A stretch of DNA of 64,000 nucleotides from a virus. Lineage: Duplodnaviria > Caudoviricetes. The notes under the pieces were generated by a model. That model had not been told where the DNA came from and made no database searches. It was given only the letters and a program-made list of their open reading frames with translations. Of this stretch, positions 26,998 through 53,305 are shown piece by piece. The DNA is taken from positions 1 to 64,000 of the IMG/VR virus record IMGVR_UViG_3300020172_000524; one strand, 5' to 3'. The position numbers and the translations under genes are program-made. Numbering within the stretch: position 1 is the first letter of the stretch; every line of letters starts with the position of its first letter.

Positions 26998-27032
26998 GAA
27001 CTAAATAAACTAAATAAACTAAAACTAAATAT

Positions 27033-27188: not shown

Positions 27189-27211
27189 GCAATTACCCCT
27201 TGCTTTTTTTT
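27181..27211 (+). terminator. Intrinsic terminator overlapping the next promoter
   Basis: AGGGGTAA-gcaa-TTACCCCT followed by TGCTTTTTTTT. Confidence 0.8.
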
Positions 27212-27229
27212 ATTAATCTTGTATATTTG
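27200..27229 (+). promoter_or_regulatory. Promoter TTG-N19-TATATTTG
   Basis: Consensus spacing; lies upstream of the cargo/RNAP operon. Confidence 0.65.
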
Positions 27230-27292
27230 TATAACTAGCTTATTTCCAAGCACTTATTAACATCTTAAGTTAATAACATTAAACATTAAAAC

Positions 27293-29953: not shown

Positions 29954-29964
29954 AATTTAAACCT

Positions 29965-31664: not shown

Positions 31665-34600
31665 ATGCCTAAAGAACCTGTATATAATGTATCACCTAAA
31701 AGTGGGATATTAACTAGTCGAACAGTAAACTTAGCAGATCCTAATGTATCTAATGCATTAGTTTATGCAGACATAAGTGCTAGAAATACTCAAGCACAAG
31801 TAGCTCAGATTAATCAAAAGAAAGAAGCAGAAAGACTTAAAGCAGCAAATGATGCTAAGATTGACGAAGCATTGGAAGCAGCAGCTAAGATTAACTTAGA
31901 AAACGCAGGAGCATTTAATACTAATGTTTTTGGACAACTAGCAGGAAGTGCAGACTTACCTGCTTTTACTATTAAACCACCTGCAGGATCTCAGGTATTA
32001 GCTGGAGGTAAGTTTAAGTTACCTGATGGAAGAATTATAAGTTCAACTTCTCTTGCTGCACCTACACAAACAAAAGCACAACCTACACCTGATCAACTAA
32101 TAGAACAAGAGACTAAAAGATCTAGATCTATTATTGAGGATAGCTTCGGAGCAAAAGATCCTATTTCAGAAGATCTTAGTAAAAAAATAGAACAACTAGA
32201 ATCTCAAATAGCAAAGATAAAAGTATTTGATGAAGAATCTGTTAGTCAATCTACTACTGCAGCTGCAGCTTGGGGGGGACAACAAGATCCTTTGTTGAGT
32301 GCCTATTTGTTTAATGCAGGAAGTAGAGTTGCTAGTGGAGAAACTAAAACAAATGAAGAGATTTTACAAGATAAGAAAAAACTTCAAACTCAATTAACTG
32401 AACTTAAACAAAGTCAAGTAGCAATCAACTCTTTTAAAGCTGATTTACAGATTAAAAAAGTTACTACAGATTATCTTACTGAGTTAAAAGGACAAGGTAA
32501 AAAGTTTGGAGAGCAAGATGCAGCAGCTTTAGTACAGAAATCAAAAGAGATTACAGCAAACCAAAGACATTATACTAGGGGAGATGAATTGTATGACGAT
32601 AATACATACAATACTTACATAAAAGAATTTCAAGGAAAGAATGATTTCTTTGACTGGAGACATACTGAAATGAGTTTAGGTAATGCAATAAACTCTGTTT
32701 ACGAACAGATAAAGACTGCAAAAGGGCCTGAGAGAGAAGAGTTAGTAGGAGTTCTTGATCAACTAACCAAGTATAATAAAAAACACGAGAGTTCTAATAA
32801 GGATGCTTATGACCATTACTATGGAGGATCAAAACAGTACTATAAAGAAAAAACCCCTTGGAAAACATATTTAGGTAACCAAGTTGGAGGAGGGGTTACA
32901 GAAGGATTATATAATGCTTTAGGTACAATAACTAGTGCTTCTCAAGATTTATTAGGATACCACTCTGCTGCATTTGCTACAAGACAAAGTAAGGATAAGT
33001 ATTTTTCAGCCGACATGCTTCAAGCAGACTTAGATGGAGATGGCCAAATTACAGAAAAAGATAAAGACATTAACGGGCAACATCAGTACATTGGAAAGAA
33101 TGTTACCTACACAAAAAAAGATGGAAATATAGGTTTTATTGGGCAGTCTGTTTTAGGAGCTTCTGTAAGAACTCTTGCAGAAATGGGACCTACTCTTTTA
33201 GCAACACACGGACTAATGAAAGCAGGAGTAGGAATGAGGACTGCAACTTTTGCACCTGTTGCTTTAACTTCTACTATTCGTTCTTATGAAGAGAATCGTA
33301 AATGGTTTAAAGATAAAGGAACTGCAGCTTTAGTGAGTGGTATTCAAGGAATTATTGAAGGAGCAACTGAATCTATTGTTCCAGACATTAGTTACTTTAT
33401 GGGTAACAAAGGATTAGGAACAAAGGCTTTGTCGGGTTTTAGCAGAAAATATTTTACAGCTCAGACTTTAGTTCCTGAGTTTACAACACTTTCTAAAGGA
33501 GCAAAGAACTTTTTATTAGGAACGGGTTATGCAGGACTAGCTTTAGGTAAACAAACTTTACAAGAAGGTTTTGAAGAAGAACTTTCAATGTTTGCTAACT
33601 ATGTTTTAGATAAACAAATTAAAACGCAAGATGATGCTTATCTAAATACTGAAGGAAAACTAGGAAGACCTCAAGAGTTAGATGACAGTAGTGTAGGAGG
33701 ATTCTTTAAATCAATAGCTCAGACTTTTGTAGAATCTGCAGCTGCTGGCTTACTTATGTCTGGTACTGCTATAGGAAGTTCTCGTACTCAGGATAGAAAC
33801 TACATGCGATTTAACATTGCAAATAATCCTGAGCAGTTTAAAGCAGAGCTCAAGACTCAACTAGAAGAAAAGAAAATTACCCAAGATCAATACAATAAAG
33901 GAATCTTGGAAACAGGTCGCTTAGCTCAACTACAAGAACAAGCAACTAATACTATGATGAACTTAGTAGACTCAGAAAATCTACTACAAGATCACGATAA
34001 ACAATATGAATATTTTTCTCAATTACTTACTAGAGATGATCTACTACAAAAAGTAGATTATAATTCTTTATCTGAAACAGAAAAAGAAGAGTATGTTAAG
34101 AAAGTAGAGAGTGTAGAGAAAGATATAGATAAGTTTGAGAATTCAGCAAGACAGTATGCAAATATGCCTAAAGAACAAAAAGAAGGCATTCTTGCTAAGA
34201 TGGTTCAAAAAAATCTTGAAAGTGTAAAGACCACAAATAATCCTGCAGTTCTTGCTAAAAACTTAGAAGCTATTGATGATGCTATTCAGATAGGAGAGAA
34301 GACTGGTAAAGGCTCTCAAGTAATGCTTTTAGGCAGACAACAAATAAGAGAAGCTTTAATAGGACAGATACAGAGACTTCAGACTGTAGAAGATAATGAT
34401 AATACTGTATTTGAGAATCAATTATTAAATAGCCCTATAGAATCTTCTGGAGAATCTATGCAGATTAGTAACGGAGTACGACTTGCAGCTTTAGTAATGC
34501 AAAACTCTAATCTTATTAGGTCTGAAGTTCAAACTCAACTTTTAGATAAAATTAAAGTTGCTTCAGAGACTGCTCAAAGTAGAATGCAAAATCTATCCAG

Positions 34601-37600
34601 AAGAGAACAAAAGAAAATTGCAGCAAGAGAACTTGCACGAGTAGAACTTATTCATCCAGGAACAGCATTTAATGCAGACGCATTAGAGCTTCTTTTTAAG
34701 TTAGATTTAACTCCTGAAGAACATTCAGATGTAGTAAGAGATGCTTCTGTTATAACTGCTAGAGAAAAAGAAAAGATTCAAGATGAAGATATCTTCCAAC
34801 CTACAGAGAAAGACACTGTAATTGATTCTTTAATCAAGTCTTTTGAGTCTCAGCCTTTAGAAGTTCAAGTAGAGAACGAACAAGGTAACTTAGAGACAGT
34901 AAGAAACGAAGAAAGAAAGACTAGGGAGATGAGAGCAATCTTTGCTATTCCCAGATCTAAATCTAAAGAACAAGCTAAGAATAGAATTAAATCTATTTTT
35001 AAAGCTATGGGATATAGTGCAGAGGATATTAACAAAGCACTAGAAGATCTTAACCAAGTGTTTGATAATCAAGAGGTTACAAATCCTGGTGACATTTATA
35101 CTTCATATTTAAGATTCTTAAATCCTACTTTACTTAAAGGTTTACCTGATAAGGTTGTTCCACAAGAAGACATTCTAGCAGAAGAAGCTCCTACAGAAGT
35201 AGCAGCAACTCCTACAGAAGTAACTCCCGTTGTTGAAGTTACTCCTTCTACCTTAGAAGAAGATGAACTGTTTGGAACTAACGAAGAGATTGATGCAGCA
35301 AGAGAAAAGAAACTAGAGATTCCTGAAGTAGATCCAGCTGACCAAGTTGTAGAAGTTACAGTAGAAGCACCCGTAGTAGAAGATGAGTTTGATGGCTTAG
35401 AGGTAGTTCCTGTAAATACAATAGAGTCTTCTGACTTAGTAGCAACTACTCCTACTTTCTCTACAAGTAGTAACTCTGCAGTACAGGGTTCTATCATGAA
35501 GACTATAAGCAATTCTGTAGAGTCCTTTAACTTAAAGTTGGTAGATATGTTTTCTTTCATTAGAGAGACTTTAGGAGAGTCATCTATATCTACTCTAGAG
35601 AACATCTATAATAACGTAACAGAGGCGCTTAAAACAAACAACCTAGAAGCTATTGCTAGACTTAAAGAAGACTACTTAGCTGTATTCAGTGGTAGTACAT
35701 TTGCTAATGAGCAGTTAGAGTATATCTGGAAAGAACAGTATATAAAAGGAAAACCTGATGCTTCTATTCCTTTTCAAGACTTAGCTTATGTTACCAACGG
35801 ACAGTTTGCTATAGCATATCAAGGAGATGAGGTAATTGTTACTGGAGTAAATAAGCAAACAGGAGAGATGTTTACTTATAATGCCACTGTAACAGGTAAA
35901 GTAAACGAATCAAATCAGATTGAAGTTAAGACTCGTAATGGTAAAATAGTTTATATTAAAAAGAGTAACCTTCAAACTATTGCTTTTAGGCCGATTAATG
36001 TAAGAACAACCTTCAACCAAATTAACTCTGTAATGATTACAGCAGTAGATAGAACTAGTGGAGAGATTGCTAAGTTTAATTCTAACGGAGAAAGAGATGC
36101 TCAAGGAGATACTCAGTTAAATGTGTTTGCTCCTAGAGAAAACGATACCATGAAAGAAGTAAGAAAGAATCTTGCTTCAGGTCAACCTATCTCTCACACT
36201 CTTCCTATTCATACAGGAGCTAGAATAAACAATAGTGCTGCTTATAAAAAAGGAAAGAACTCTGTTTACTTAACTGCTTCAGTTGCAGGCATAGATACTA
36301 GTATTCAAACAGTAGAGCCTGAGATAGAAACTCCTGCTCAACCTCTACCTATTTCAGAAGAGGTTGTTAAAGAAACAGAAGCAAAAATAAAAAGAAGAGA
36401 CTTATTTGATGGTGTAGGAGAATTTTCTAGGATACTAGGAAATAGTGGAGTAGATTCAGTTCCAGTATCACACTCTGAAAACAATGGTATAGAATTAGTT
36501 CAGTATGCAAATCCAAAAACTGGATCTGTAGACGTTATTGTAACTGGAACTTCAGAAAATGACTTTGTTGGTTTCTATCGTATTTACGAGAACGGAAAGC
36601 CAACAAACAAGTGGAGTTCAAAGTTTGAAAACCAGTCTAGGAATAAGGAAAACTTCAAGACAATGATCAGTGGCGTACAGTCAATGCTACCAAGTGATCA
36701 TGAATATACAGAAAAAACAAGCATCTCTACCGATGGTTTAAGAGTTTGGAACCAACAACTTGATAGAGGTTACGAGTTACAGTATGACGAAAATGGAAAA
36801 TTAAAAACAAACTTAGTAGCCATTAATGGGGATGCTATTCAAAATGAATTAGGTATACCTGTAAACAAGGGCAATTTTGAAAATATAAAAGTAAAAACAG
36901 AAGAAGAGTTTGAAATATCAAAGAAAGCTTTGTTGCCTTATCTAGAAAAACTAGGGTTGAATGAAAGCAATATTTATTATAACTCTGGTACTATTAAAAT
37001 TGATTTGCCTATATTAAAAAAATCTTTACCTACTCAAGCTACTGCTACTACAGCACCTTCAGTTGATATAAGTAAAGAAGTTATACTTAGTGGTTTAAGG
37101 GGGGGATTTAAAGCAGTGTCATACTCATCATTTGATATACGAAGTGATGAGAATGTAATCAATCAAATAGAAAGAAACAAGTCATTTTCAACTACTATAG
37201 AAAGAAAGGGCAAAAAATACGTATTAGTAGGGTTACGTATAATTCAAGATGTAGGCGCTACAACTTTAGGTAGGGATGGTTACTCATTTGCTATGATAGA
37301 AGACAATGGAAGTTTACCCAGTAACATTGTAGACCTTCTTAAGGAACAAGCTATAAACAATGTTTCAAACATATATCCAAACATTGATGCTGTTGAATCT
37401 TCTTTCGAGCCAATAAAAGTACCTGTTCAATTAGTTGCTTTAGAACAACCAGCATTTGAACCAGAAGTAACTACTAACTTAAGTAAAGATGAGTTAGCTA
37501 TTCTTTCTTTTGATGTTAGTTCTATTGAAGGACTTGAGGGAGCTACTGAGTCTTTAGACCAGAATACTAGCAAAGAGATAGATGATGCAGGTAGCTGTAA

Positions 37601-37610
37601 GATTAATTAA
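31665..37610 (+). CDS. Giant virion-packaged/ejected protein (1981 aa from the ATG at 31665)
   Basis: Gly/Ala-rich membrane-like segments, QEGFEEE motif, acidic linker, C-terminal accessory domains; the single Cys is 4 residues from the C-terminus. Confidence 0.7.
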   Translation: MPKEPVYNVSPKSGILTSRTVNLADPNVSNALVYADISARNTQAQVAQINQKKEAERLKAANDAKIDEALEAAAKINLENAGAFNTNVFGQLAGSADLPAFTIKPPAGSQVLAGGKFKLPDGRIISSTSLAAPTQTKAQPTPDQLIEQETKRSRSIIEDSFGAKDPISEDLSKKIEQLESQIAKIKVFDEESVSQSTTAAAAWGGQQDPLLSAYLFNAGSRVASGETKTNEEILQDKKKLQTQLTELKQSQVAINSFKADLQIKKVTTDYLTELKGQGKKFGEQDAAALVQKSKEITANQRHYTRGDELYDDNTYNTYIKEFQGKNDFFDWRHTEMSLGNAINSVYEQIKTAKGPEREELVGVLDQLTKYNKKHESSNKDAYDHYYGGSKQYYKEKTPWKTYLGNQVGGGVTEGLYNALGTITSASQDLLGYHSAAFATRQSKDKYFSADMLQADLDGDGQITEKDKDINGQHQYIGKNVTYTKKDGNIGFIGQSVLGASVRTLAEMGPTLLATHGLMKAGVGMRTATFAPVALTSTIRSYEENRKWFKDKGTAALVSGIQGIIEGATESIVPDISYFMGNKGLGTKALSGFSRKYFTAQTLVPEFTTLSKGAKNFLLGTGYAGLALGKQTLQEGFEEELSMFANYVLDKQIKTQDDAYLNTEGKLGRPQELDDSSVGGFFKSIAQTFVESAAAGLLMSGTAIGSSRTQDRNYMRFNIANNPEQFKAELKTQLEEKKITQDQYNKGILETGRLAQLQEQATNTMMNLVDSENLLQDHDKQYEYFSQLLTRDDLLQKVDYNSLSETEKEEYVKKVESVEKDIDKFENSARQYANMPKEQKEGILAKMVQKNLESVKTTNNPAVLAKNLEAIDDAIQIGEKTGKGSQVMLLGRQQIREALIGQIQRLQTVEDNDNTVFENQLLNSPIESSGESMQISNGVRLAALVMQNSNLIRSEVQTQLLDKIKVASETAQSRMQNLSRREQKKIAARELARVELIHPGTAFNADALELLFKLDLTPEEHSDVVRDASVITAREKEKIQDEDIFQPTEKDTVIDSLIKSFESQPLEVQVENEQGNLETVRNEERKTREMRAIFAIPRSKSKEQAKNRIKSIFKAMGYSAEDINKALEDLNQVFDNQEVTNPGDIYTSYLRFLNPTLLKGLPDKVVPQEDILAEEAPTEVAATPTEVTPVVEVTPSTLEEDELFGTNEEIDAAREKKLEIPEVDPADQVVEVTVEAPVVEDEFDGLEVVPVNTIESSDLVATTPTFSTSSNSAVQGSIMKTISNSVESFNLKLVDMFSFIRETLGESSISTLENIYNNVTEALKTNNLEAIARLKEDYLAVFSGSTFANEQLEYIWKEQYIKGKPDASIPFQDLAYVTNGQFAIAYQGDEVIVTGVNKQTGEMFTYNATVTGKVNESNQIEVKTRNGKIVYIKKSNLQTIAFRPINVRTTFNQINSVMITAVDRTSGEIAKFNSNGERDAQGDTQLNVFAPRENDTMKEVRKNLASGQPISHTLPIHTGARINNSAAYKKGKNSVYLTASVAGIDTSIQTVEPEIETPAQPLPISEEVVKETEAKIKRRDLFDGVGEFSRILGNSGVDSVPVSHSENNGIELVQYANPKTGSVDVIVTGTSENDFVGFYRIYENGKPTNKWSSKFENQSRNKENFKTMISGVQSMLPSDHEYTEKTSISTDGLRVWNQQLDRGYELQYDENGKLKTNLVAINGDAIQNELGIPVNKGNFENIKVKTEEEFEISKKALLPYLEKLGLNESNIYYNSGTIKIDLPILKKSLPTQATATTAPSVDISKEVILSGLRGGFKAVSYSSFDIRSDENVINQIERNKSFSTTIERKGKKYVLVGLRIIQDVGATTLGRDGYSFAMIEDNGSLPSNIVDLLKEQAINNVSNIYPNIDAVESSFEPIKVPVQLVALEQPAFEPEVTTNLSKDELAILSFDVSSIEGLEGATESLDQNTSKEIDDAGSCKIN

Positions 37611-37645
37611 TAAGAGTTAAAAGTAGTATAAATACTAAACTAAAG

Positions 37646-37653
37646 TATATTTG
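37646..37653 (+). promoter_or_regulatory. -7 element TATATTTG 5 nt upstream of the RNAP start codon
   Basis: Exact TAnnTTTG match in an intergenic gap; no clear -33 TTG. Confidence 0.55.
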
Positions 37654-37658
37654 TAAAG

Positions 37659-40600
37659 ATGGCAAAAATAATCTGCCCTACCAGGGAAAATAAAGACTTT
37701 TCAAACTTAAGCAATGCTATAGGTAGTGATGCCTTAGCAAGATATGTATGGCTTCAACACGGTAATCTTCCTTTAAATGTAACGGAGGATTCTGAAGGAA
37801 ACATTGTTCCTAATGAAACCTACAAAAGAATATTAAATGAAGTTGCAGACGGTAACGAAAATCTTGCCTTAGATACTACTTCTTTGATGTACTACCCTAG
37901 TTTTAAAGAAAAGTATGCTGAAGAAGATCCTGCTTTTATTGTAGACTACATTAAACAAGAAGCACAGGACAAACAAGAGAAGGCAGCTAGAAGACAAGCT
38001 CAAGTTGAAGAAGAGAAGATTATTCCTGGAACAAAGACTCTTTACATTCAATCACCTGAAGGAGATGTTGTATATACTCAAGAAGAAGGAAAAGAAATCT
38101 TTGACAGTTTAGAGTACTTAGCGTCTACTAAAAAAGGTTGGAAGGGTGTAGTCGAATCATTGAAAGAAAGAGTCACAGACATTCAAACAAAGATTAAGAA
38201 TGGTGCAAGCGATCCTGAAGTAACTGTTACTCCTCAAGAACTTTTAATCGGTAAGAACTTAGTCAACCTTCTTAAGCATTGGCCTCAAGTAAAAGCTTGG
38301 TATCTCAGTCAAGATACAAACTTTGGCTTAGAGTTACTTGAAGATGAAGTAGATCAAGAGACAGGAGGAAGTGTATACAATAAGAATGCACATGAACGCA
38401 GTCAGATGGATTTAGCATCTGCTGAAGTTATTAAATTAGTACAATCTCTTCCTAGGTATAATAAACTTACTACACAAGATCGTAAGGATGTTAAAGAAGG
38501 CAAGAAGAGTATTACGGACTTTCAAGTAATCAGTAACCTAACAGGCTTTCCCGTAGTCGGAACTTTCTCTACTAACTGGAATGTACTTACTTCTAGTTTG
38601 TCTGGTATTACTAAGTATGATAAAATCTTACAAGAGTTAGAAGTAGTTGCTCAAGAGTATCCTCAGTTTAGAGACTTAGCTAACATGCTTCCTAAGGAAG
38701 ACATACAGGATGCAGACCTAAAGACTGCAAACTTTGTAGCTTCTTTTGTACAGACTGTATCTCTACCTGAAATAGGCGCCTATCAATTGTCTATTGGAAA
38801 AAGAAATGTAGGTAAAGAAGTTAAGTTAACCTCTAAAGTATTTAAGTTAGGCACTAGAACAGTAGACAATCTAATTCGTTACTTTGACGAAGACTACTTT
38901 AAGTCTAATCCTAGCTACGGTATTTTAAACGATGAAGGAAAGACTGTTTTAAACATTCCTAAACTATTAGCAGACTTCAGAGGTATTACAGATATTCGTA
39001 GATTCTTCGCAGACAAAAATAATATAGACTCCCCAGAAGGAAGAAAGCTTCTTCAAGGCATCCACAAGTTCTACAATGCATTAGGTATAATTCCTAGTAA
39101 TGCTCTTTACCAAAAAGACAAGAAAGCTTTGTATGACTTCTTAGCTGATACTACGTTTGAAGTAAGAGAACTATATGATAAGTTAGAAGCTAGTATCGAT
39201 GATAAAACAGTTACTCAACCACTACAGTTTTTAGCTAGACCCCAAGGTTCAGGCAAACAACTTGGTCCTAAGTTTGATATTGTAAATAAGATTGTAGGTT
39301 ACTATGGTAAGTTTGAGAGAGAGTTTGCTTCAGGTTCTTACTATAACCCTGAGGATAAACTACAATACAATCGTGTACAATACTTTTATCTTACTCAAGT
39401 AACTAACGCACTTAATAGTGTAAACAGTTATAACGAGTTAATTAGTAAGCCTGAGTTTGCTCATTTAGACTTTAGATTAAATCCTAATATTCTTGGTTCT
39501 GTATGGATGGAAAGAATGTTTGGTGTTAGTCTTAAGGGTAAAACTATTGGACAACTTAAGAAAGAACTAGACGGAGGTAAAGAGTTTCCTAGACTTAAAA
39601 CTAAGTTTAGTAAAGAGCCCTTTAAGATCGACATAGTAAACTATTCTGGTTTAAGCATTGATGCTGACGTAAAGAAAGGTGTTACTACTACAGAACTTAC
39701 AGCAGAAGATAAGATTACACAAGACTTTATTTCTTTCTTTGCTGGAGGAGTAGTAGAAAACATTCGTTTTGGTGACAAAGGAACTTCTTACGCTACCGTT
39801 ACTTCAGGTAAGATAGAAGAGAGAATGTATATTCCTTTGAATAGCGAGATCATGGGTATGCCAGAAAAGCCTACCTCTGTAGTGGAACAAGCACTTGTAG
39901 CACAGTTTAAAGATTATCTTACCTCTGAAGTATATCGTATTCTTGCTATCAATAAGGATACAAAGAAACACACCTACAATAAGAATGGAAGACAGTTGTT
40001 TTTATTTAAAGACATGCTTCCAAAAGAAGACTATGATGCTTTGACTAGTGAAGATGATGCAGTAGTAAAAGAAGCCTATGGTAGAGTCGTTAATCAACTT
40101 CCTACTTATCTAGGTAATTATTTTGCAGAACAGACTAAGGCTTATAAAAGTCGTTTATCAGATTCTGTTCTTGGAGATACTTCTGCTATTATGTCTTCGA
40201 TTACAGAAGAACAAAGAGAGGAGCAATTAGTAAATTCTATTAATGCATTAGGATTTATGGACCCTGCTTTAAGTAAAGTAGGATTAAATAAAAACAATCT
40301 AGATTACGTTATTGCAAACTACTTAAAGAACGACTTTATTCATAAGGCAGAGTTCATGAAAGTGTTTGTAGGAGACATTGCTAACTTCCAAGTTAAAGGT
40401 GACTTCCGTGAGGTCTTCAAGCGTATTCCTCTTACCTCTTCTCCTGGATTTGTTTTCCAAGACAATCCAGTAGTAATGGCTCACTTAAACAACAGTAGTG
40501 GTACTAACGGACTATACAAAGCCCTTAGAGGTGGTGGAAGAAAGTTTGGTAAGACTGTAAGAACTGTAGTATTTAATGACGTTAATACTTTTTCTAAAGA

Positions 40601-43600
40601 AGATTGGCCTACGTATAGAGCTGCTTTAGGACTTCCTGATACTATGGAGTATCAAGAGTATGTAAACTCTCCTAAGGAAGCAGATGCACAAGGTTTAGTT
40701 AGTTTAGATTTTTATCGTAACTATCTTATTGGTCTAGGACAATGGTCTCAGGAGCAAGAAAATGCCTACTTAAACGAAATAGAAATCTTCAAGATTCTTA
40801 ACAAGAAAGAAAAGACAGAAGAGGACTATGCTAAGATGCAAGAGTTGAAAGCTTCTATGAACTACGTAGGTTTCCCTCCACTTAAGTTGGGACACTATGG
40901 ACCTATTGTAGAAGATCCTAAGCTTACAGCTTTACATAAGTATTCATTAGCTCCTATGATTCCTTCTATGATTGCAGGAACACAGTTAGAAGAATTGAAC
41001 AAACAAATGATAGCTAAGCAAATTGACTATGCTACATTTAACTCAGGTTCTAAAGCTTCTAACTACGGAGATGCTCTAGACTTTTATGTTCCAGACGTAA
41101 ACAATCAAGGAACTCTTAAAGTAAATCCAAGTATTAAAGGGAACAACGTTACTACTCTTCACTTAACTAACCTTAAGCAACAACAGTATATTGCTCCTAA
41201 ATTTAAGAACGAAGCTACTTTAGCTACTCAGATGGTCAAACTTATCTTTGGAGATTTTTTTGCTCAAGGTAAATTAACTGACTTAAATGCGAGTACTGCA
41301 AAAACTATCTCTGATCTTTACAAAGACTATACAAATGTATTAGGAAATATTATTGGAGCAGAAGAAATTAATCTATTTAACAAACTAGGAATAAGCAAAG
41401 ATGCTCAAGGTAACATTGTAGGCTTTGACAACAAGAAGTTCTATAACTTCCTAAAAGGAGAGTTAGAAAAGAGAGATACAAGTGCTTCTCTTAAAAGGTA
41501 TATTCAATTAGATGAAGCTGGTAACATCAAGTATCCACTAGATGCTACCAAGAACAGAGCAGAGATTGAAAACATCTTACTCTCTATTATTAATAATAAA
41601 GTTATCTCTCAGAAACTCCACGGGGAGTCTTATGTACAGATGGCTTCTACAGCTCAAGGCAATACAAGATTCACTAAACCTACTGAAGAACAAATTAAGA
41701 AGTACGGTATTAACGGATTAAGATTCTACCGTAAGGGACCTGATGGTACAGAACCTGCAGATGTTAAAATTGCATTCAATCCTAAGAAGCATGCAGGTTT
41801 ACTTAATCTTACATTTAGAGGTAAGAAGATCGGAACTATAGATAACCTAAACAAGATCCTTAAATCTAATAACCAAGAAGCTATTGATTGGGTAAACCAA
41901 CACACTAAAAAACTTAGCTTAGTAGGTGTACGTATTCCTGTACAAGGACTAAACTCTATGGAGTACTTTAGAGTAAGAGAGTTCTTACCTACTAGTGCAG
42001 GTCCTGTAATTGTAGTTCCTTCTCAAATCGTAGTTAAGTCGGGTTCTGACTTTGACATAGATAAGTTGACTATGTTTGAACCTAAGTTAGATGCTAACGG
42101 AGAGATAGTAGGAGATGGAGGATTTGATTTAGGAAAGTACAGAGAGAGCCTTCCTAGCCAGAAAGAGGCTATGAGGATGCTTAAGACTCTTATTGAAGCT
42201 AAGCAAGCTTTATCAGAAGTTCTAGCAGTAACTCCTGTTTATGTAAACAAAAAACAATTAGAGAAAGAAATCCAAGAGTTAACCGAGTCTATCTCTTCGA
42301 CAGAAGAAGAGATTGGTAAATTCTCTAACAAAAAAATGAACCTAGAAGAACTTCAGGCACTTATGTCTGAGGGATCTAGCGAGAAAGAAAACTTAATTAA
42401 AGCTAAGATAGAAGAAGCAAAAGCACTTGCTAAATCAGGTGATCTAGCTGCATCTCTTCCAGTACTTAAAGCACTTAAGTCTGAAATCAAAAACTACGTA
42501 GAATCAGTTAATGGAGTAAGAAACTTTAAACAGGCTAACGTTAATAAGTTGATTGACATCTTTACCTCTGTTCTTTCTATGAAGGAGAACTACGATAAGC
42601 TAGTTCTTCCTAATACCAACACTGTATTGACAGAGATCTCTGATAAGCTAAATGCTAATCCTATTACTTCTACTGAACTATTTAGTCCTTTGACATCTAA
42701 CCGTGTATACGGAGACAATATCGAGTCTAAGAAGGCTTTAGGAATTGATGCTAAGCTTAACACTATGCAGAAAGAGTTTCAGATTGCAGGTCTTGTTTAC
42801 ACAAACGAACTCTCTTTTATGTATCCTTTTTCTGCAAATAAAGTAGGCGAAGGAATTAGTTTAGGTGAAAAAACTCTTACAGACGGAACTTCTATTTCTC
42901 GTGTAATCAGTGAAGCTATTAATGGTCACGTAGATATTGCAAAAGAAGATTGGATTATCTTGTTAGGATTAGATAAAGCTAAGACTCCTTTATTTCATGC
43001 TATGATTCTTGCAGGTACCCCTGTAAAGACTGCCTTAGATTTCTTGAATAAACCTGTAGTAAAGTATGTTCTTAAAGAATCTACTAGAGGTCCTTTGTTT
43101 CAACAGTTAGGCGGCAGAAGAGGAAGACGTACTGATTTAACTTTTAATGATATTCTACTAGATACTTTTTACGAATTAGATTCCTCAGAAGAAACCTATA
43201 GTATAATTCAAGGTTCCATTGTATATAATAATAGTGATAATATTAAAATTAAGGAAAGTATTTTAAACATAAGATCTTCGGTAGGCTCAATCGAGAACAA
43301 AGAAGTTGCTGATAAAGTAAAAGATCTAGTTGATCTTTATATGATTAAACAACTACAAGGTTCTATTCAGCAATTGACTAGTCTTGTAGATTACAATACA
43401 AAAAGATTCCAGAACTCCTACCAAGTAAAAGCGGATAAGATTACTTTAGGTAAGATTTATTCTAGTTTTAATAGTGAAGGTTTAAACAAACTAATTAATA
43501 AATCTGCTTTATCTAAGTTTAATCAATCTAATAGTATTGAGTCTTTGATGCCTCAAATATTTGATGTATCTAATCATCCTAGTGTGCTTGATGCTATTAC

Positions 43601-45866: not shown

Positions 45867-45870
45867 ACAC

Positions 45871-46383
45871 ATGGCAAGTTGCGACTTAAAAACAACAAAC
45901 AGAGAATACATGATATCTACGGGAGCCTTAGAACAAGGTTCTCGTAAGATAAAAAACGAAGGTCTCTTTGATGTAAAGAATGCAGAGATTAGAGATGCTG
46001 CTAATCAACGTTACAATCTAAACACTCAAGAACTTCCTTTCAGTAAAACAGAAAGAACTATTTCCAGAAGTGAGTATCTTAAAAGAGGGTCTGACTATTT
46101 TGTAGAATGGAACTTTAATGATAAGTTCTTTGATGAAGTAACTCCCACAGTAGAGTTTTATAAGTCTATGGAAGAAAATGAAATAGAAGATGAGATCATA
46201 CCTACTTATGATCAGTTGCAGATTCCATTCGAAGAGTTAATAGATGAAGATGTGATTGTTAAAGACAGTCCTACTAGATCTACTTTTCCTTTTGAAGCTG
46301 AAGACTATCTGGAAGATGTTAAGCCAGAAACTAAAGCTAATTTAAATAAACTCCAATTCAAAGAACAACAGTGTGGTCTTTGA
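45871..46383 (+). CDS. Small virion-module protein with one Cys near each terminus (putative linker)
   Basis: MASCD...EQQCGL; acidic C-terminal half; sits between two giant genes. Confidence 0.65.
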   Translation: MASCDLKTTNREYMISTGALEQGSRKIKNEGLFDVKNAEIRDAANQRYNLNTQELPFSKTERTISRSEYLKRGSDYFVEWNFNDKFFDEVTPTVEFYKSMEENEIEDEIIPTYDQLQIPFEELIDEDVIVKDSPTRSTFPFEAEDYLEDVKPETKANLNKLQFKEQQCGL

Positions 46384-46384
46384 T

Positions 46385-46392
46385 TATATTTG
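46385..46392 (+). promoter_or_regulatory. -7 element TATATTTG
   Basis: Exact match in the gap before the gene at 46419. Confidence 0.5.
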
Positions 46393-46418
46393 TATATATT
46401 CTAACTTAAGATAAAATA

Positions 46419-49400
46419 ATGTCCTGTAAAGCAACTATAAAATCTCCTATTACTGGTAAGACAGTTATGTCTACTACTTACTTTCAGTTAACTAATGTGT
46501 TTGACAAAGAGAAGGCTGTAGATATTTATAACAGTATGTATACTCCAGCATTCCAAGACTTACTTGGGTTTGATTGGACTACAAACAAACAGTATAGAGA
46601 AGAGCTTAACTTAAACGGAGAGCCTAAGATTGAGTACCTTAACAAGATACTTAATTTGGAAATGTCTGATTATCAGATAGATGCGATCAACTCTCAAGAG
46701 GATATCTTGACTCAGTTAGATCCTATGCAGAACTTTCCTAGCTACGAAGAAGCTCAAGTTGTTGCAGCTCAATTTAACTTAAACCCAAGATACAAGAATG
46801 TATCTGCAGAAGTAATAAGAACAGATGATGGTTTCAGAGTAGCAGTAGGTGTTTACAGTATAGCTAGACCAGAAACTAAAGAAACTTTAAGTGCTCTTAA
46901 CTTTGGAGAGATTATCTCTCAGTTCTTTCCTAGTAGCGATACTAATTGGAATGATGTAGTATCAGGATTACTTACTAGCGATCGTATCTCCGATACTCAA
47001 AAGACTATCTTATCTAAATTACAAGAATTACAAAACATCAACCCTAGTGTTAAGCTAGTAGTGTTCGATGATACAGACTCTATGGATGCAGGTCAAGTAG
47101 CATTCTATGACAATAACTCACGTACGATCTACATAGGTAAGACTGTAAGTGAGAGTATGGATGATTCTAAGCTTATTAGAGACATTATCCACGAGTCTAT
47201 GCATGCTTACACCATTAAGGCTTTGAATGAACCTGTAACAGATCAGGAGAAGGCATTTAAGGCAGAGATGGAAAAGGCTTACAACTCTTACTTGAAGAAG
47301 TTTCCTAACCTAGTTGTTAACTACGGATTTAACAACGTAGAAGAGTTTGTAAGTGAGGTAGTATCCAACCCAGATTTTAGAGCAGCTTTAATCACACAGC
47401 AAGAGTCTCTTAAAGAAGATAAGAACTTCTTAAGAAACATGATAGAGAAGATTACAAACTTCTTAAAGGGTTTGTATACTGACGTTCCTAACTTAGAGGA
47501 GATTGATTCTACCATCAATAATTATCTAGATCACTTAGTTGAGACTAGAGATATGCCTGTTACTCAGGGAGAATATGACTTAAGATTCAGAAATGAAAAG
47601 TTTAATCCCAACGGAGTTACAGACTTAGAAAGATTCCCAGAGTTACAGAAGTTTGTAAACTTCATCAATAAGAACTCTTCTACAAAGATGTGGGGACAGA
47701 TTACACAATCCCTTAAAGAGATTGACTCTTCTCTTAGAAACACTGGTAGATTACAAGAACGTTTCACTAGTATTAATGCTACTAACGCTAAAGATATCTT
47801 AGCTAATACTATTAGTTATTTAAATTCAGCTTTATCTACTCTTTCAACTGTACAGAATCAACTAGAACTTTACAAGAAGAACGCTTCTGAGTTTGAAGAC
47901 TTTGCAATCATTAAGACTTTTAACTACGCTAAGAACTTAAGTGGAGTAATCAAAGACCAGCTTAATGAGTTTGAAAAAGAGTTTAACTCTATCTTTAACG
48001 TAGCGGATATAACAGACATGCAAGAGAAAGCTAGCACTATTGAGGCTTTTGAAATGTCTGTACCTAACTACGAAGAAGTAGTTAGAGAGATTTTAAGCAG
48101 TATAGAAGGTACTCGTAAGTTAGCGGACTCTATTGACAGTAACTATAACAACGCAGTAATTGCTCCTATTGCTAGAGAGTTGTCTAGTTCTTTTGGAGAG
48201 AGTGCAACAATTGAAGGTAAGAAAAGAGTACAAGAACAACTTGCAGCATTAGTTGCAGCTAAAGCCAAAGCAGACTCTACTGGTAAAACAGCTTTATCTA
48301 AAGTTTTAGCTAGAGAGATTGAAGACTTACGACAGTTAGAGAAGTTTATTCCTACAGCTAAGAACATTGAAGAGCTTCTTAAAAACGATAAGAAGAACGG
48401 AAGAGAGACTAGTTTGTTAGGTATGTGGATTAACAATGCAGTTCAAGGTAAGAATCCTACTGTCCAAATTGTTAAACAGTTTATTGATAAGGCTACTGCA
48501 GAAGCTCAGGTAAACTCTGGTAAGTTTAGTAAGCGTGCTCAAGATATCTTTGATAGACTACGTGCCCTTAGAGGTAAGTTAGCTACTGAGGTAATGACTT
48601 ACCAAACCTTATATAAAGGTTTTACTAGAGAGGTAGAAGTTTTACATAAACAACCAGATGGTTCTTTCAAGAAAGTAAAGCAAGCAATCTTAAACACTAA
48701 GTTAAAAGAAGAGGAGTTCCAGAATGATCTTAAGATTCTTTTACAAAGAGAAGACGATGCTTTAAAGACAGGTAACCAATCTGCTATAGACTCTACCAAA
48801 GAAGCTACTAATAAGTTCTTAGAAGAGTATGCTATGCGTCCTTACACAGACGAATACTATAAGATTCAAGGCTTACTTACAGAAGAAGCTAAGCAAGCAA
48901 GAGAAGAGATCTTATCAGAGATTAGTTTCTTATCAGAAGATCCTAATCCTGAGGAAGGAACTAAAGACGAGATCAAAAGACTCTTAACTGAGTTTAATCG
49001 CTTAGGTTCTCTTTACTATTCTAATGGAGATGAGAAGCCAGCAGGAAGTAAAGAAAGAAGAATAGCTGAATCTATTATGGCTTGGAAGAAGGAAAGAAAC
49101 AATCGAGATGTTTTAACCTACGACAACCTAACTAAGAGAAAACAGTGGCAGATCCAAAAGAATGAGATAGATGAACAGTACTCTAAAATTTTAAAAAGAA
49201 AGAATGCTTCAGATATTTCTATGTCTATGGCAGGATTTGCAGAAGTGGCAGACGAGAATCTGGCAGAACAGAATGAAAATATCACTAAAGAGTTTGAAGA
49301 AGCTAAGAAAGTAAGAGATCAGTGGTACGAGGAGAATACAAAAACAGAAATTGCACCTGAGTTCTATCGACAACAACAAGCTATCACTGATTCGATTAAT

Positions 49401-52400
49401 GCTATTCTTAGTAGGTATCCTACTTTTGATGCACAAGATCTTACTGATGCTTACCAAAGATTAAACAATGCAGTATTAGGCTTTAGAGATAACGATGGAG
49501 CTATCCAAGGTAATGACGTTGTTAACGCTGGTAACTTGTTTCAGACTGTAAAAGAAATAGAAGAAGAGATAGAAACCATTAAGAAAAATAGTCAGGCTAG
49601 GGAAGTAAGCAAAGATGACCAAGAAGAGTTGGCTAGACTGTATAAGATGCTTAATGCTTTGCAGGGTAGAAAAGAAACTCAATACTATAAAGACAAAGTA
49701 TCAGAAGTACAGGCAAGTATCAGAACAGAGTTAGCTCAGGATGAAGAGTTCATGAAGGACTTGGATGAAAAAGCTAAAGCTAGAAGAGATTCTTACATTG
49801 CAGCACAGTTAATGAATACTTTTACAACAGTAGAAGATGTTAAACAAGCAATGATTGAGGAAGAGATAGAAGATAGGTTTAGAGCAACTCAATGGTATAA
49901 GGACAATCACATCGTTACAGAAGAAACTAGAATCGTAAACGGAGATACAGTAACAACTACAAAAGAAAGACCTTCTTATATTTGGACTCAGGTAGTACCT
50001 AAAGATCCTAGAAATATTATAGAAGAATCTCCTTCTTTTCAGTGGGCTATTCCTGTAATTGATGAGACTTTCAAGAATAAAGATTATCGTTTTACTACAG
50101 AACCTAGACCTAGAGAAACTCAAGATGGTAAATACTCTAACCCAGAGTATTCTAGCTTACCTGCACAAGAGAAAGCTATCTTAGATGATATTATTGCTTT
50201 ACATGAAGACGTACAGAAAGAGTTGCCTAAGAGTCAACGTGTAGGGTATGCTATTGTAAACGAAAACAAGACAGCATTTGAAACTTTATCTACTGCTTTA
50301 AGAAAGCCTCTAGATACATTCTCAGGAATCTATGAGTTGTTTAAGTTAACATTTGCACCTAACATAGGATCTGCTGAGTACGAAAGATTAGATGACTCAG
50401 AAGTAGAGGTTATTAGTGGAAGAAAGGTACAATTGATTCGTAGTCGTTATAAGACTCCTTTAAACACTAACCAAGTATCTTATAATATTCTAGGTAACAT
50501 TGCTAAGTTTGGTGTTTACTCTTCCCACTTTGCAGCCATGCAGAAGATTATGCCTACTGTGTTCAGCACAAGAGACGCATTAGAGAGAAACAAATCAGCA
50601 GAAAGTACTTTATCTACAGTAGACTTCGAAATTTCTAAGAACTTCTACGGAGAAGAAATTAGTTCTATGGGTAACAATAAGTATGTAAAACTTATTAGTC
50701 GTCCTTTAAATAAGTTCTTATCTGTAGGTCAACGTAAAGCTTTACAGTTTAACGTAATTGCATCTATAAAGAACTTTGCAATCAACTTATGGAACGCAGG
50801 TATAAACAATAACCTAGCAGGTGTAACTAGAGCAGAGTTTATTCAAGGTATGTGGAGAGGTATCAAACAATCAGATAAGATGTTTGAAGTGTACAGAGGA
50901 GGAGGAAATGTTTCTTACTACGCAGATTTATTGATGCATTTTAATGCTATGCCACAAGCACAACCTGGAGCTAAAGCAGATACTATCCATCAGACTATGT
51001 TGAATAGGTTTGTTTCTAGTGAGACTGCAGGATTTGTAGTACGTGGATACTTAGAAAGTATTTCTACTATTGCTGTATTTGAATCTATCATGAACCAATA
51101 TAACGTTCAGATAGAACAGGGAGGAACAACAAGAACTATTAAGTTAGCAGAAGCTTACGAGCAAGTAAATGGTAAACTTCAGCTTAAAGCAGGAGTTAAA
51201 GTAGAGAAAATAGATCGCTTAGAGCAAGAAATCAGGGATAGAATCTTTAACTACTTTACTTCATCTCAAGGTAACTACTATAAGAGAGGATCTGCTCAGT
51301 ACGAAAGATACATTATTGCTAGAATGGTGATGAGTATGAAGCGTTGGCTAACTAGCACATTTAATAATAAGTATGGAGCGAGAAGACTTCAGTTAAACAC
51401 AGGTAACCTAGAGAAAGGATTTAACAGAGAAGTTATGTCTTATGTCCAGTTGCTAGCTTTGGGAGGTAGTTCTATGGCTAACCAGATGACTACTGATCAA
51501 CAGAAATCTAGAATGCGTACTGCAGCAACTAACTTAGTAGCTATGCTTGCTGTTCAACAAGCTTTAATTACTACTATGGGTATACTTGCTAAGTCCTTAG
51601 ATGATGATGATGAAGAGCCTACTAGTCCTTTCTTGGCGTTTATTGGTAATATTCTTCAGGGTATGCATGATGAGTTAAGTACCTTTAGTCCTTTAGGAGC
51701 AGCAAACTGGGCTTACAAATCACTCCTACAAACTCCTCAGAAACAACCAGGAGAGAGTGATGCAGTAGCAAGAGCTAAACAAATAAGTTGGAGTTTGATT
51801 GGAGGTACAACCAAGGCTTCTTATGATGCTTTAACTCCTTTCTTTGATAAGGATACTTGGTTAGATCCTGCAGGTTCTTTTACTTATAGATATACTAACG
51901 GAAAACCCGATTCTTTTAGTACTCCTGAAGCATTAGAAGGAAAATCAAACTTACTTGCAGCTTTCATGATTTATACGGGAGCAGAAGTAGGTATGAGTCA
52001 ATTCCTACAACCAGAGAAGAAGCTTTATACAGTTCTAAAATACAATCCAAGGTTAGACTTTACAGAGGAAAGAAGAATTAAACTAGATCCAATGGGAAGC
52101 TACAATGAGTTGAGTGAAAGGGTAACAGCAATAAAAAAAGAGTTGAAGTCAGTAGTTCCCTCAGAGATAATAACAGATAGAGCAGAAAGAGACGCTAAGA
52201 TTTCCGAAATACTAGTCCTAGAGAAAACCATGGAAACAATAGGAGAACAATATTCATATGTAGGAGCATACTATAGAAATAGAAAGTTTGCTTCTTCTTT
52301 GGGTAGTTCAGAAGCAGCAGATCTAGATAAGGAGATTAAAAGATACCAAATACAGAATAACCCACAAGATTTTATCAGAGAAAAGATAAAGTCTAAACAG

Positions 52401-52448
52401 GAAAGTCTAGAAAATAAAAGAGCTAAGGAGAGACTAAGGGGAAAATAG
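46419..52448 (+). CDS. Giant virion-packaged protein with a zincin-like metallopeptidase domain
   Basis: AFYDNNSRTIYI...IIHESMHAYT...EEFVSEVVSNPDF (HExxH at 47190 plus a downstream Glu); long helical body; the single Cys is residue 3. Confidence 0.75.
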   Translation: MSCKATIKSPITGKTVMSTTYFQLTNVFDKEKAVDIYNSMYTPAFQDLLGFDWTTNKQYREELNLNGEPKIEYLNKILNLEMSDYQIDAINSQEDILTQLDPMQNFPSYEEAQVVAAQFNLNPRYKNVSAEVIRTDDGFRVAVGVYSIARPETKETLSALNFGEIISQFFPSSDTNWNDVVSGLLTSDRISDTQKTILSKLQELQNINPSVKLVVFDDTDSMDAGQVAFYDNNSRTIYIGKTVSESMDDSKLIRDIIHESMHAYTIKALNEPVTDQEKAFKAEMEKAYNSYLKKFPNLVVNYGFNNVEEFVSEVVSNPDFRAALITQQESLKEDKNFLRNMIEKITNFLKGLYTDVPNLEEIDSTINNYLDHLVETRDMPVTQGEYDLRFRNEKFNPNGVTDLERFPELQKFVNFINKNSSTKMWGQITQSLKEIDSSLRNTGRLQERFTSINATNAKDILANTISYLNSALSTLSTVQNQLELYKKNASEFEDFAIIKTFNYAKNLSGVIKDQLNEFEKEFNSIFNVADITDMQEKASTIEAFEMSVPNYEEVVREILSSIEGTRKLADSIDSNYNNAVIAPIARELSSSFGESATIEGKKRVQEQLAALVAAKAKADSTGKTALSKVLAREIEDLRQLEKFIPTAKNIEELLKNDKKNGRETSLLGMWINNAVQGKNPTVQIVKQFIDKATAEAQVNSGKFSKRAQDIFDRLRALRGKLATEVMTYQTLYKGFTREVEVLHKQPDGSFKKVKQAILNTKLKEEEFQNDLKILLQREDDALKTGNQSAIDSTKEATNKFLEEYAMRPYTDEYYKIQGLLTEEAKQAREEILSEISFLSEDPNPEEGTKDEIKRLLTEFNRLGSLYYSNGDEKPAGSKERRIAESIMAWKKERNNRDVLTYDNLTKRKQWQIQKNEIDEQYSKILKRKNASDISMSMAGFAEVADENLAEQNENITKEFEEAKKVRDQWYEENTKTEIAPEFYRQQQAITDSINAILSRYPTFDAQDLTDAYQRLNNAVLGFRDNDGAIQGNDVVNAGNLFQTVKEIEEEIETIKKNSQAREVSKDDQEELARLYKMLNALQGRKETQYYKDKVSEVQASIRTELAQDEEFMKDLDEKAKARRDSYIAAQLMNTFTTVEDVKQAMIEEEIEDRFRATQWYKDNHIVTEETRIVNGDTVTTTKERPSYIWTQVVPKDPRNIIEESPSFQWAIPVIDETFKNKDYRFTTEPRPRETQDGKYSNPEYSSLPAQEKAILDDIIALHEDVQKELPKSQRVGYAIVNENKTAFETLSTALRKPLDTFSGIYELFKLTFAPNIGSAEYERLDDSEVEVISGRKVQLIRSRYKTPLNTNQVSYNILGNIAKFGVYSSHFAAMQKIMPTVFSTRDALERNKSAESTLSTVDFEISKNFYGEEISSMGNNKYVKLISRPLNKFLSVGQRKALQFNVIASIKNFAINLWNAGINNNLAGVTRAEFIQGMWRGIKQSDKMFEVYRGGGNVSYYADLLMHFNAMPQAQPGAKADTIHQTMLNRFVSSETAGFVVRGYLESISTIAVFESIMNQYNVQIEQGGTTRTIKLAEAYEQVNGKLQLKAGVKVEKIDRLEQEIRDRIFNYFTSSQGNYYKRGSAQYERYIIARMVMSMKRWLTSTFNNKYGARRLQLNTGNLEKGFNREVMSYVQLLALGGSSMANQMTTDQQKSRMRTAATNLVAMLAVQQALITTMGILAKSLDDDDEEPTSPFLAFIGNILQGMHDELSTFSPLGAANWAYKSLLQTPQKQPGESDAVARAKQISWSLIGGTTKASYDALTPFFDKDTWLDPAGSFTYRYTNGKPDSFSTPEALEGKSNLLAAFMIYTGAEVGMSQFLQPEKKLYTVLKYNPRLDFTEERRIKLDPMGSYNELSERVTAIKKELKSVVPSEIITDRAERDAKISEILVLEKTMETIGEQYSYVGAYYRNRKFASSLGSSEAADLDKEIKRYQIQNNPQDFIREKIKSKQESLENKRAKERLRGK

Positions 52449-52879: not shown

Positions 52880-53305
52880 ATGAAGACCCTTTTAGTAACT
52901 ATCACCACAGTATGTGCCTTCTTGGGCACATATTTTTTAAATCTAACTGCAGATAACGCAGAACAATACTTAGCGATTGTTGCTGTTGTATTTGTAGATG
53001 GATTTTTTGGTGTGTGGGCAGGTACTAAGAAGATTGGTTTTCAGACAAGAAAAGCAGTTAAAGTACTTCAGACCTTGTTTGCTTGGGTAATGATTCTTTC
53101 TGCTATCTTAATGGTAGAGAAGGGTTTCCAAGGTACGTTCTGGCTTTCAGAAACTTTCTGTGCTCCTTTTATTGTCTTCCAACTTATTAGTGCGCTTAAG
53201 AATGCTCACACAGTAGGAGTACTAAACAACAGTGTACTATCTCAGATCTTAGCAAAGATAGACCAGCATAAATTTAACCACGATAATGAAAAACCTCTCG
53301 ATTAA
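52880..53305 (+). CDS. Putative holin
   Basis: Several TM segments; VDGFFGVWAG...SALKNA...G pattern resembling phage holin family 4. Confidence 0.7.
   Translation: MKTLLVTITTVCAFLGTYFLNLTADNAEQYLAIVAVVFVDGFFGVWAGTKKIGFQTRKAVKVLQTLFAWVMILSAILMVEKGFQGTFWLSETFCAPFIVFQLISALKNAHTVGVLNNSVLSQILAKIDQHKFNHDNEKPLD

Follow-up and report, generated by a model that had tools for sequence, protein, structure and literature searches.

Facing terminal cysteines in the RNA polymerase cargo proteins of crAss-like phages suggest an end-to-end linked ejection chain

Results

Six cysteines at three gene junctions of a crAss-like phage

A 64,000-nucleotide stretch of tailed-phage DNA (Duplodnaviria; Caudoviricetes; positions 1 to 64,000 of IMG/VR record IMGVR_UViG_3300020172_000524) was analyzed and is called the window. 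Its sequence reads as the module for structural proteins and early delivery of a divergent crAss-like phage, with matches to the crass-type PHROGs for terminase (phrog_6681), portal (phrog_6547), and major head protein (phrog_11589). Four successive plus-strand genes, here called A, B, C, and D, occupy positions 31665-52448. The proteins they encode have cysteines only at the termini that face each other across the three gene junctions. The genes, the cysteine codons, and two sequence motifs are as follows (aa, amino acids).

31665..37610, plus strand: gene A, 1981 aa; proposed first link of a chain; position of phi14:2 g067 and crAss001 gp47
37596..37598, plus strand: A Cys1978, the sole cysteine of A, 3 residues from the C-terminus (..GSCKIN, stop)
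37659..45866, plus strand: gene B, 2735 aa; putative virion RNA polymerase (RNAP), phi14:2 gp66 homologue
37674..37676, plus strand: B Cys6 (MAKIIC), one of only two cysteines in B
42048..42062, plus strand: catalytic DFDID motif of B, residues 1464-1468, within SDFDIDK (1463-1469)
45861..45863, plus strand: B Cys2735, the final residue of B (..DPFKC, stop)
45871..46383, plus strand: gene C, 170 aa; proposed two-ended adaptor link; C-terminal half acidic
45880..45882, plus strand: C Cys4 (MASC)
46372..46374, plus strand: C Cys168 (..QQCGL, stop)
46419..52448, plus strand: gene D, 2009 aa; proposed last link; homologue of phi14:2 g065 and crAss001 gp49
46425..46427, plus strand: D Cys3 (MSC), the sole cysteine of D
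47190..47204, plus strand: HExxH motif of D, residues 258-262, found by motif scan; presumed zincin-like domain

An exact count gives six cysteines in the 6,895 aa of A, B, C, and D, each 0-5 residues from a terminus and all at the three facing junctions. The outer ends, the A N-terminus and the D C-terminus, are bare. A first-pass annotation made from the DNA letters had reported six cysteines in these proteins, all terminal, with none at the start of the first protein or the end of the last. The count agrees with it and finds no internal cysteine, and the codon positions it gave (37596, 37674, 45861, 45880, 46372, and 46425) are correct. The other open reading frames (ORFs) of the window contain 147 cysteines in 10,952 aa (1.34%). 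The expected number in 6,895 aa is 92.5 compared to the 6 observed (binomial P = 3.5e-32), and the probability of finding all six no more than 6 residues from any of the 8 termini is ~1.1e-13. Cysteine numbers and positions this improbable exclude chance. The interiors of the four proteins are cysteine-free against the 1.34% background, which is the suppression seen in the ejected proteins of Schitoviridae, and each of the three junctions has the sole or near-sole cysteines at facing C- and N-termini that mark the gp27-gp26 pair of cyanopodophage A4.

Gene B matches the phi14:2 g066 'Catalytic RNA polymerase subunit' at 24.9% identity (tblastn, E = 2e-15), and its tblastn matches extend to 123 phage records, mostly Crassvirales and Flavobacterium phages. 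D1464, D1466, I1467, and D1468 are invariant in an alignment of 18 homologues (A1). B carries the DFDxD catalytic motif of the phi14:2 gp66-type RNAP module, and the surroundings are also those of that module: the A and D giants stand beside B, downstream of the terminase, portal, capsid, and tail genes. Gene D matches phi14:2 g065 (blastp, E = 2e-16), and blastp aligns gene A over its full length with the A proteins that lie upstream in related loci. Pfam and PHROGs contain no family for A, C, or D, and B gave only a sub-threshold NDC80_loop match. A DNA search of the phage collection with positions 45000-47500 returned no match, and neither did tblastn of D in that collection. The hidden Markov model (HMM) of the C family found no homologue in the local database beyond its own clade. 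Gene C may have arisen by fission of B, but the alignment of C to the tail of the unsplit B of locus L018 is unconvincing (score 38), and the C HMM has no match there outside its clade. Virion presence and delivery are known only for the homologues in crAss001 and phi14:2, and the phi14:2 record notes 'experimental MS/MS proteomics' for these proteins.

Facing cysteines are conserved in RNAP homologues

Seven IMG/VR relatives (L001-L007), in which C is 67-99% identical, keep all six cysteines and have gained none, although B is anywhere from 2237 to 2735 aa long. The RNAP core, used as a query, returned 587 matches, and cysteines were tallied in the best 120 of the 587, which are 31-98% identical. 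Exactly two cysteines, one per end, are found in 98. An N-terminal cysteine (<=10 residues from the end) is present in 104 and a C-terminal cysteine (<=20 residues) in 116, and there are 19 internal cysteines in 332,156 aa. Matches without one terminal cysteine are mostly short, with the RNAP core near the start, which suggests that they are truncated gene calls. Among 28 homologues of 4788-4995 aa, the C-terminal cysteine is present in 26 and the N-terminal cysteine in 4, and 2 have no cysteine. Proteins with > ~2,400 residues ahead of the RNAP core, in which an A-like part is fused in front, lack the N-terminal cysteine.

Precomputed Pfam domains are present in the variable parts of many RNAP homologues (P0014, P0017, P0020, P0024, P0027, P0042, P0076, and P0123-P0144). 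These are a 2OG-Fe(II) oxygenase (PF13532), NADAR/DUF1768 (PF08719), zeta-toxin (PF06414), ART-PolyVal (PF18760), and helicase (PF13604/PF13245). They look like injected enzyme modules carried by the polymerase. The homologues that bear them are still almost cysteine-free.

Cysteine pairs are lost in gene fusions and gained in gene fissions

A profile search of IMG/VR gave 80 related loci at 23-88% identity. B was found by the first motif and translation table 11 in 69 of these, and the other 11, with motif variants or apparently recoded stops, were checked separately, some by reading TAG as Q or TGA as W. These 11 loci, which are outside the junction counts below, obey the facing-cysteine rule, two of them once the start is shifted to the first Met that follows the upstream stop. 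The rule is obeyed in 80/80 related loci, down to 23% identity.

Dereplication at <80% core identity left 55 loci. Their 239 same-strand adjacent ORF junctions have cysteines on both sides in 94 cases, on neither side in 121, and on one side only in 24 (Fisher odds ratio 81, P = 7e-39, a test that counts related genomes and not independent events). The junction upstream of B has both cysteines in 33 loci, neither in 10, and is interrupted in 1. The downstream junction has both in 50, is interrupted in 1, and is replaced in 1 by a fused protein with neither; in 1 further case the C-terminal cysteine of B is present and there is no next ORF within the distance rule. Apart from L024, L026, and the loci with inserted endonuclease genes (below), the one-sided junctions mostly involve small non-chain ORFs. 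The outer ends, the N-terminus of A and the C-terminus of D, never carry a cysteine in the loci examined. The 146 chain proteins of the 55 loci comprise 343,454 aa and 220 cysteines, of which 187 lie <=20 aa from an intact end and 33 are internal (0.0096%); the other ORFs of these loci contain 0.78% cysteine. In complete chain proteins the terminal cysteine is 0-7 residues from the end in 161/163, and the other two are at 18 and 20. The sole cysteine of A is 18-20 residues from the end in L024 and L026.

In four loci (L029, L040, L045, and L089) the partners are split by GIY-YIG, T5orf172, or NUMOD-type homing-endonuclease genes, and the separated partners still keep the cysteine pair. The inserted genes, in what are otherwise short gaps between chain genes, are listed here.

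L029, 12361-13050
L040, 16839-17048
L045, 278-763 and 10024-10641
L089, 18181-18774

The number of terminal cysteines equals 2 x chain proteins - 2 in each architecture seen. These architectures are listed below with a slash for a gene boundary, a plus sign for a fusion, and X for an adaptor.

A/B/D: phi14:2, crAss001, and many loci
A/B/X/D: the window and nine other adaptors (169-583 aa, cysteine at both ends) in the 55 dereplicated loci
A1/A2/B/X/D: L082, a five-link chain
A+B/D: FpV4, five named Suoliviridae, and many loci
A/B+D: Intestiviridae cr11_1 and cr110_1
B+D with an N-terminal extension of 1,200 aa: L052 (5002 aa), which lacks terminal cysteines

The A+B fusion was confirmed by blastp to A proteins in L061, L066, L077, L084, and L090. 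In A+B fusions the C-terminal cysteine of A and the N-terminal cysteine of B are lost together, while the C-terminal cysteine of B and the N-terminal cysteine of D are kept. The B+D fusions show the converse loss, and each new split adds one cysteine per side. Since fusions take away just the two facing cysteines and splits bring in just two, these comparisons give strong support to pairing between facing termini; the chemistry of the pair is not settled by sequence. The three sequence checks set by the first-pass annotation, terminal enrichment, reciprocal pairing at junctions, and loss of the pair in gene fusions, all came out in its favor. Its view of the 170-aa protein as a two-ended adaptor fits the recurrent adaptor class listed above.

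The separate or fused state of A and B changes at least 5 times on a tree of the RNAP core. L030 and L045, whose upstream region is truncated at the contig start or broken by an endonuclease gene, were removed from this tree, and FpV4 is not in it as its motif is outside the search pattern. The adaptor state, assigned by a size-based rule, changes at least 8 times, and one of these is L029, which is not a true adaptor. In a small local database the adaptor tail of L020 matches the very C-terminal end of unsplit B proteins (E = 1e-5 to 1e-3), which lends weak support to its origin by fission of B. The A tail of L020 (9560-9919) is 53% identical to the window A tail (37248-37607) and the best RNAP segment just 38%, which suggests mosaic exchange of the A-tail segment.

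The facing-cysteine rule holds in named Steigviridae, Suoliviridae, and Intestiviridae, the last represented by cr11_1 and cr110_1. In phi14:2, g067 has only Cys1797, the last residue, g066 has only Cys3 and Cys2179, and g065 has only Cys3. In crAss001, gp47 has only Cys2339 of 2341 residues, gp50 has Cys5, Cys1334, and Cys2404, and gp49 has only Cys5; gp47 is encoded on the strand opposite to gp50 and gp49. The sole cysteine of the FpV4 A+B fusion (gp32, 4287 aa) is Cys4286. The B+D fusion of cr11_1 (gp66) has Cys3 and no C-terminal cysteine, and the upstream gp65 has Cys1987 of 1988 residues. The annotated start of cr110_1 gp40 (L094, NC_055879) is 14 codons upstream of the MSCTVKIT start used in cr11_1; with the later start its cysteine is at position 3. 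Many in-frame stops under table 11 occur in the late and cargo genes of cr6_1, cr125_1, and cr53_1 (L092, L096, and L097) and of L035, L053, L067, L072, and L076. There are 57 in cr6_1 gp36, and reading TAG as Q or TGA as W gives longer frames in such loci, in keeping with the recoding of stop codons known for some crass-like phages.

Conservation and predicted structure of the junction termini

No column other than that of the cysteine is invariant in the alignments of A tails (A2, 33 sequences), B N-terminal 300-aa segments (A3, 33 sequences), and D N-terminal 400-aa segments (alignment A4, 53 sequences), and the mean column identity of these alignments is 10-18%. The column of B Cys2735 is nearly invariant in A1. 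The model of the 300-aa B head has a predicted local distance difference test score (pLDDT) of 70; residues 11-90 are confident (pLDDT 84-90), and Cys6 is placed in the coil tail that precedes them. The model of the 400-aa D head has a pLDDT of 83.9. Foldseek searches of the two head models against the PDB gave no match at E <= 0.001, and the D head had faint, non-significant fold matches to minimal metallopeptidases.

The first-pass annotation had also proposed that the N-terminal regions of B and D resemble each other as a shared docking domain. The quoted strings exist (B 47-82 and D 13-45), with a local score of 42 (z = 2.6) that 15/500 shuffles reach. Alignment of 34 B heads and 52 D heads with hhalign gave a probability of 2% with only M-x-x-C aligned, and the shared domain was rejected.

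Complex prediction, which the first-pass annotation had expected to pick out cognate termini, was run with 120 aa of the A tail and 300 aa of the B head (33 rows each). The median interface score (ipSAE) was 0.39 (runs of 0.57, 0.39, and 0.31) compared to 0.05 for the best control. At least 18% of contacts are shared between runs, and partner pLDDT is at least 40. The ipSAE mark used was passed by 58/80 solved complexes and 2/110 mismatched pairs, and the passes at ipSAE <=0.60 are 7/80 solved complexes and both passing mismatches. The predicted A tail-B head pair stands above its controls and is a weak pass by this calibration.

Other features of D and the neighboring genes

The HExxH motif is also in the majority consensus of the D-head alignment, and a zincin annotation of phi14:2 gp65 is given in the Drobysheva preprint (10.1101/2020.03.07.982082). 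The motif is near the N-terminus of the D-position protein in the window (258) and in phi14:2 g065 (245), and toward the C-terminal end of the A-position proteins crAss001 gp47 (residue 2157) and cr11_1 gp65 (1772). Judged by these motif positions, the zincin-like domain appears to have shifted along the chain. The free C-terminus of D is basic (..KERLRGK; window tail 52386-52448). The last residue is K or R in 29/44 D proteins (D of L012-L091) compared to 71/198 other ORFs, and T7 gp16 likewise ends in ..RERRK. The basic end may bind DNA or the portal, or may be chance.

The genes on either side of the four cargo genes include the following.

24720-25115, plus strand: 131-aa protein between the tail and cargo genes, very basic and low-complexity, with CxxC at residues 11-14
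26548-26997, plus strand: 149-aa DUF6321 protein (PF19846, E = 1.4e-10), ending ..RRRWKC
27293..31653, plus strand: two cysteine-free genes (886 aa and 562 aa), placed like those of crAss001 cargo gp45 and gp46, outside the chain
52880-53305, plus strand: phage holin (PF05105, E = 4.6e-6), immediately downstream of the cargo module

Three upstream ORFs in 25115-31653 (478, 886, and 562 aa) are without cysteine, and the 149-aa ORF has two. By gene order the 886-aa and 562-aa genes would occupy the cargo position; the 886-aa protein matches phrog_15413. The C-terminal cysteine of the 149-aa DUF6321 protein recurs in same-position 190-aa ORFs of L012, L016, and L018, and the protein after it has no N-terminal cysteine. 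The 131-aa CxxC protein was considered as a thiol oxidoreductase or redoxin and dropped; it has no Pfam match and is basic, low-complexity, and unlike glutaredoxin.

Discussion

The observed cysteine pattern is reciprocal and is gained and lost as genes split and fuse. It is probably best explained by an internal cargo in which A, B, C, and D are joined end to end by inter-chain disulfides into one linear polymer. In this proposal, the four proteins would be carried inside the capsid and leave it by way of the tail, with interiors that are cysteine-free as in other ejected phage proteins. Cargo of this kind would avoid cysteine so that no cross-linking occurs while it is unfolded during passage through the tail and cell envelope. 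The pairs would be A Cys1978-B Cys6, B Cys2735-C Cys4, and C Cys168-D Cys3, and an inter-chain disulfide is the most likely bond, formed in the assembled or released particle. The product would be a linear A-B-C-D polymer of ~6,900 residues whose unlinked ends are the N-terminus of A and the C-terminus of D. Because the bonds would lie beside the chain ends, the stubs would be only a few residues long and the joined chain could pass a narrow channel as a near-linear thread. The disulfide joint would be evolutionarily interchangeable with a peptide bond. It would hold the RNAP to its partner proteins while the cargo is packaged and ejected, keeping their ratio and order fixed, and the proteins would separate by reduction in the host cytoplasm. 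We infer the bond in crassviruses, its timing, the threading of linked chains, the fixed stoichiometry, and the reductive release.

Several points weigh against this proposal. The cytoplasm where virions are assembled is reducing, and strict anaerobes are common among the hosts. The interior rule is relaxed in some lineages, as there are up to 8 internal cysteines in the ~4,400-4,950-aa fused proteins of named Suoliviridae, 7 in the D proteins of cr6_1 and cr125_1, and 5 in the Intestiviridae fusion. Independent events are few; the A/B contrasts agree with the cysteine state in 4/4 cases, for a sign test P = 0.125. The A tail-B head complex is a weak pass as a model, with a poorly folded predicted partner (pLDDT 41-44). 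No disulfide or other bond between these proteins has been reported in any crassvirus. Cryo-EM of crAss001 left the RNAP-associated cargo unresolved, and the word 'cysteine' is absent from the available text of that paper (PMC10172136). The solved A4 bond lies in an ordered, folded pre-ejectosome (PMC12002296) and is a precedent for the bond and not for the threading of a linked chain. A blastp comparison of A4 gp26-gp29 with the crass A, B, and D sets gave no match at E <= 0.01.

The same bonds might instead staple folded, ordered cargo inside the capsid and be broken or irrelevant before the proteins exit one by one, with no threading. This explanation, which we consider unlikely, draws on the A4 structure, where the Cys1715-Cys5 bond sits at a gp27 helix in a gp26 cleft within a fivefold ordered assembly (PMC12002296), and on the B and D heads, which are predicted to be folded domains just after their cysteines. 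A threadable joint needs a cysteine close to the chain end and a folded-interface staple does not, and the cysteine is 0-7 residues from the end in all but two of the 163 complete termini. The flanking tails are the least conserved parts, with the cysteine alone invariant, and the available text on crAss001 describes its cargo as without ordered density for these proteins (PMC10172136). A bridging metal ion, such as Zn or Fe and possibly shared by two chains, could couple the facing cysteines in place of a disulfide. Pairing deduced from sequence does not separate S-S from S-metal-S, and a metal bridge could form more easily than a disulfide in virion proteins made in a reducing cytoplasm. It is nevertheless improbable, as each terminus offers one thiol with no conserved neighboring His, Cys, Asp, or Glu, and the only solved case of the pattern is a disulfide (PMC12002296).

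It is highly improbable that the terminal cysteines do not pair with the neighbor and act instead in homodimers, ring closure of B, portal or capsid binding, or another modification. The window counts alone would also fit A-D pairing with ring closure of B and C, but the cysteine losses and gains in fusions and fissions are not predicted by ring closure or homodimers, and bare outer ends are the rule throughout the loci examined. A chance by-product of low cysteine content, which has nothing in its favor beyond the general cysteine suppression of ejected proteins (PMC11445570), is refuted by the comparative data and has a negligible probability. The positional P in the window is ~1e-13, the cysteines are conserved in 80/80 loci to 23% identity, and T7 and N4-like phages suppress cysteine without facing pairs.

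A broader possibility, offered tentatively, is that the module is a redox-cleavable pseudo-polyprotein. Up to five giant proteins, joined end to end by disulfides that are freely exchanged for peptide bonds in evolution, would be packaged in fixed ratio, threaded through the tail as one polymer in gene order, and separated, perhaps also activated, by reduction in the host cytoplasm, and the A4 pair would be the same device. If so, A4 would show this device in unrelated podophages. Crassviruses are the most abundant human gut phages. The crAss001 and N4 structure papers leave open how ~0.7 MDa or more of RNAP and partners is packed and injected by crassviruses. The three proteins associated with the RNAP may form a functional unit comparable to the N4 virion RNAP (vRNAP), which is a single chain. 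Fusion and fission in the RNAP module seem to be tolerated, and the facing-cysteine rule would explain this tolerance. The 2n - 2 rule for terminal cysteines yields a concrete and cheap test on cultured crAss001 and phi14:2, and sole cysteines at facing termini may serve as a sequence signature for linked ejection proteins in other phages.

Comparison with known ejection systems

The first-pass annotation knew of no earlier description of such a chain. No description of a crass cysteine chain was found in the literature, with subscription journals mostly outside the coverage; the A4 gp27-gp26 disulfide (PMC12002296) and the cysteine suppression of ejected proteins (PMC11445570) are already in print, so that the first-pass view is only partly right. 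The word 'cysteine' does not occur in the available text of the Drobysheva preprint (10.1101/2020.03.07.982082), which proposes that fused forms are polyproteins that are 'likely cleaved'.

The crAss001 and phi14:2 modules are homologous to that of the window (B to gp50 and g066, D to gp49 and g065), have the same facing-cysteine pattern, and are virion-detected; they differ in having three links, without the 170-aa adaptor. Mass spectrometry identified crAss001 gp47, gp49, and gp50 as virion cargo at ~six copies each (Bayfield et al. 2023, PMC10172136). This cargo must partly unfold to pass constrictions <50 A, and inter-subunit disulfides are modeled in tail and portal-vertex proteins of the same virion (PMC10172136).

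The Schitoviridae (N4 and DEV) resemble the window in expelling a giant virion RNAP, presumed unfolded, via a narrow tail (PMC11445570, PMC13434306). Cysteine is 0.865% of their proteomes compared to 0.00075% of gp71 homologues, and the idea that cysteine suppression reflects periplasm passage is cited there (PMC11445570). The N4-type vRNAP is unlike B in being a single ~3,400-3,500-aa chain of another polymerase family, and it has neither terminal cysteine pairs nor linked partners. The crass module would arrive at a similar 'one thread' state by bonding separate proteins. T7 is like the window in that gp15 and gp16 have no cysteine and gp14 has only Cys2, and unlike it in having no reciprocal facing pair.

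A structural precedent for the bond is the cyanopodophage A4 (Anabaena phage A-4L) pre-ejectosome, which was solved by cryo-EM with a gp27 Cys1715-gp26 Cys5 disulfide in the virion (PNAS 2025, PMC12002296). The gp27 C-terminal helix is inserted in a gp26 cleft and fixed by this bond in a fivefold ordered assembly. The available text presents the bond as a stabilizing detail and states no general rule or link to fusion and fission (PMC12002296). In the A-4L record the two genes are adjacent, Cys1715 is the sole cysteine of the 1717-aa gp27 (..DNPCQF, stop), and Cys5 is the sole cysteine of the 1114-aa gp26 (MSKHC). The window shares neighboring ejection-protein genes with sole cysteines at facing C- and N-termini. 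It differs in having three links and four proteins compared to one link and two proteins, and A4 has no RNA polymerase and belongs to an unrelated family (Saffermanviridae). As there is no sequence or fold similarity to the A4 families, the window module would work like the A4 pair and is not a member of its protein families.

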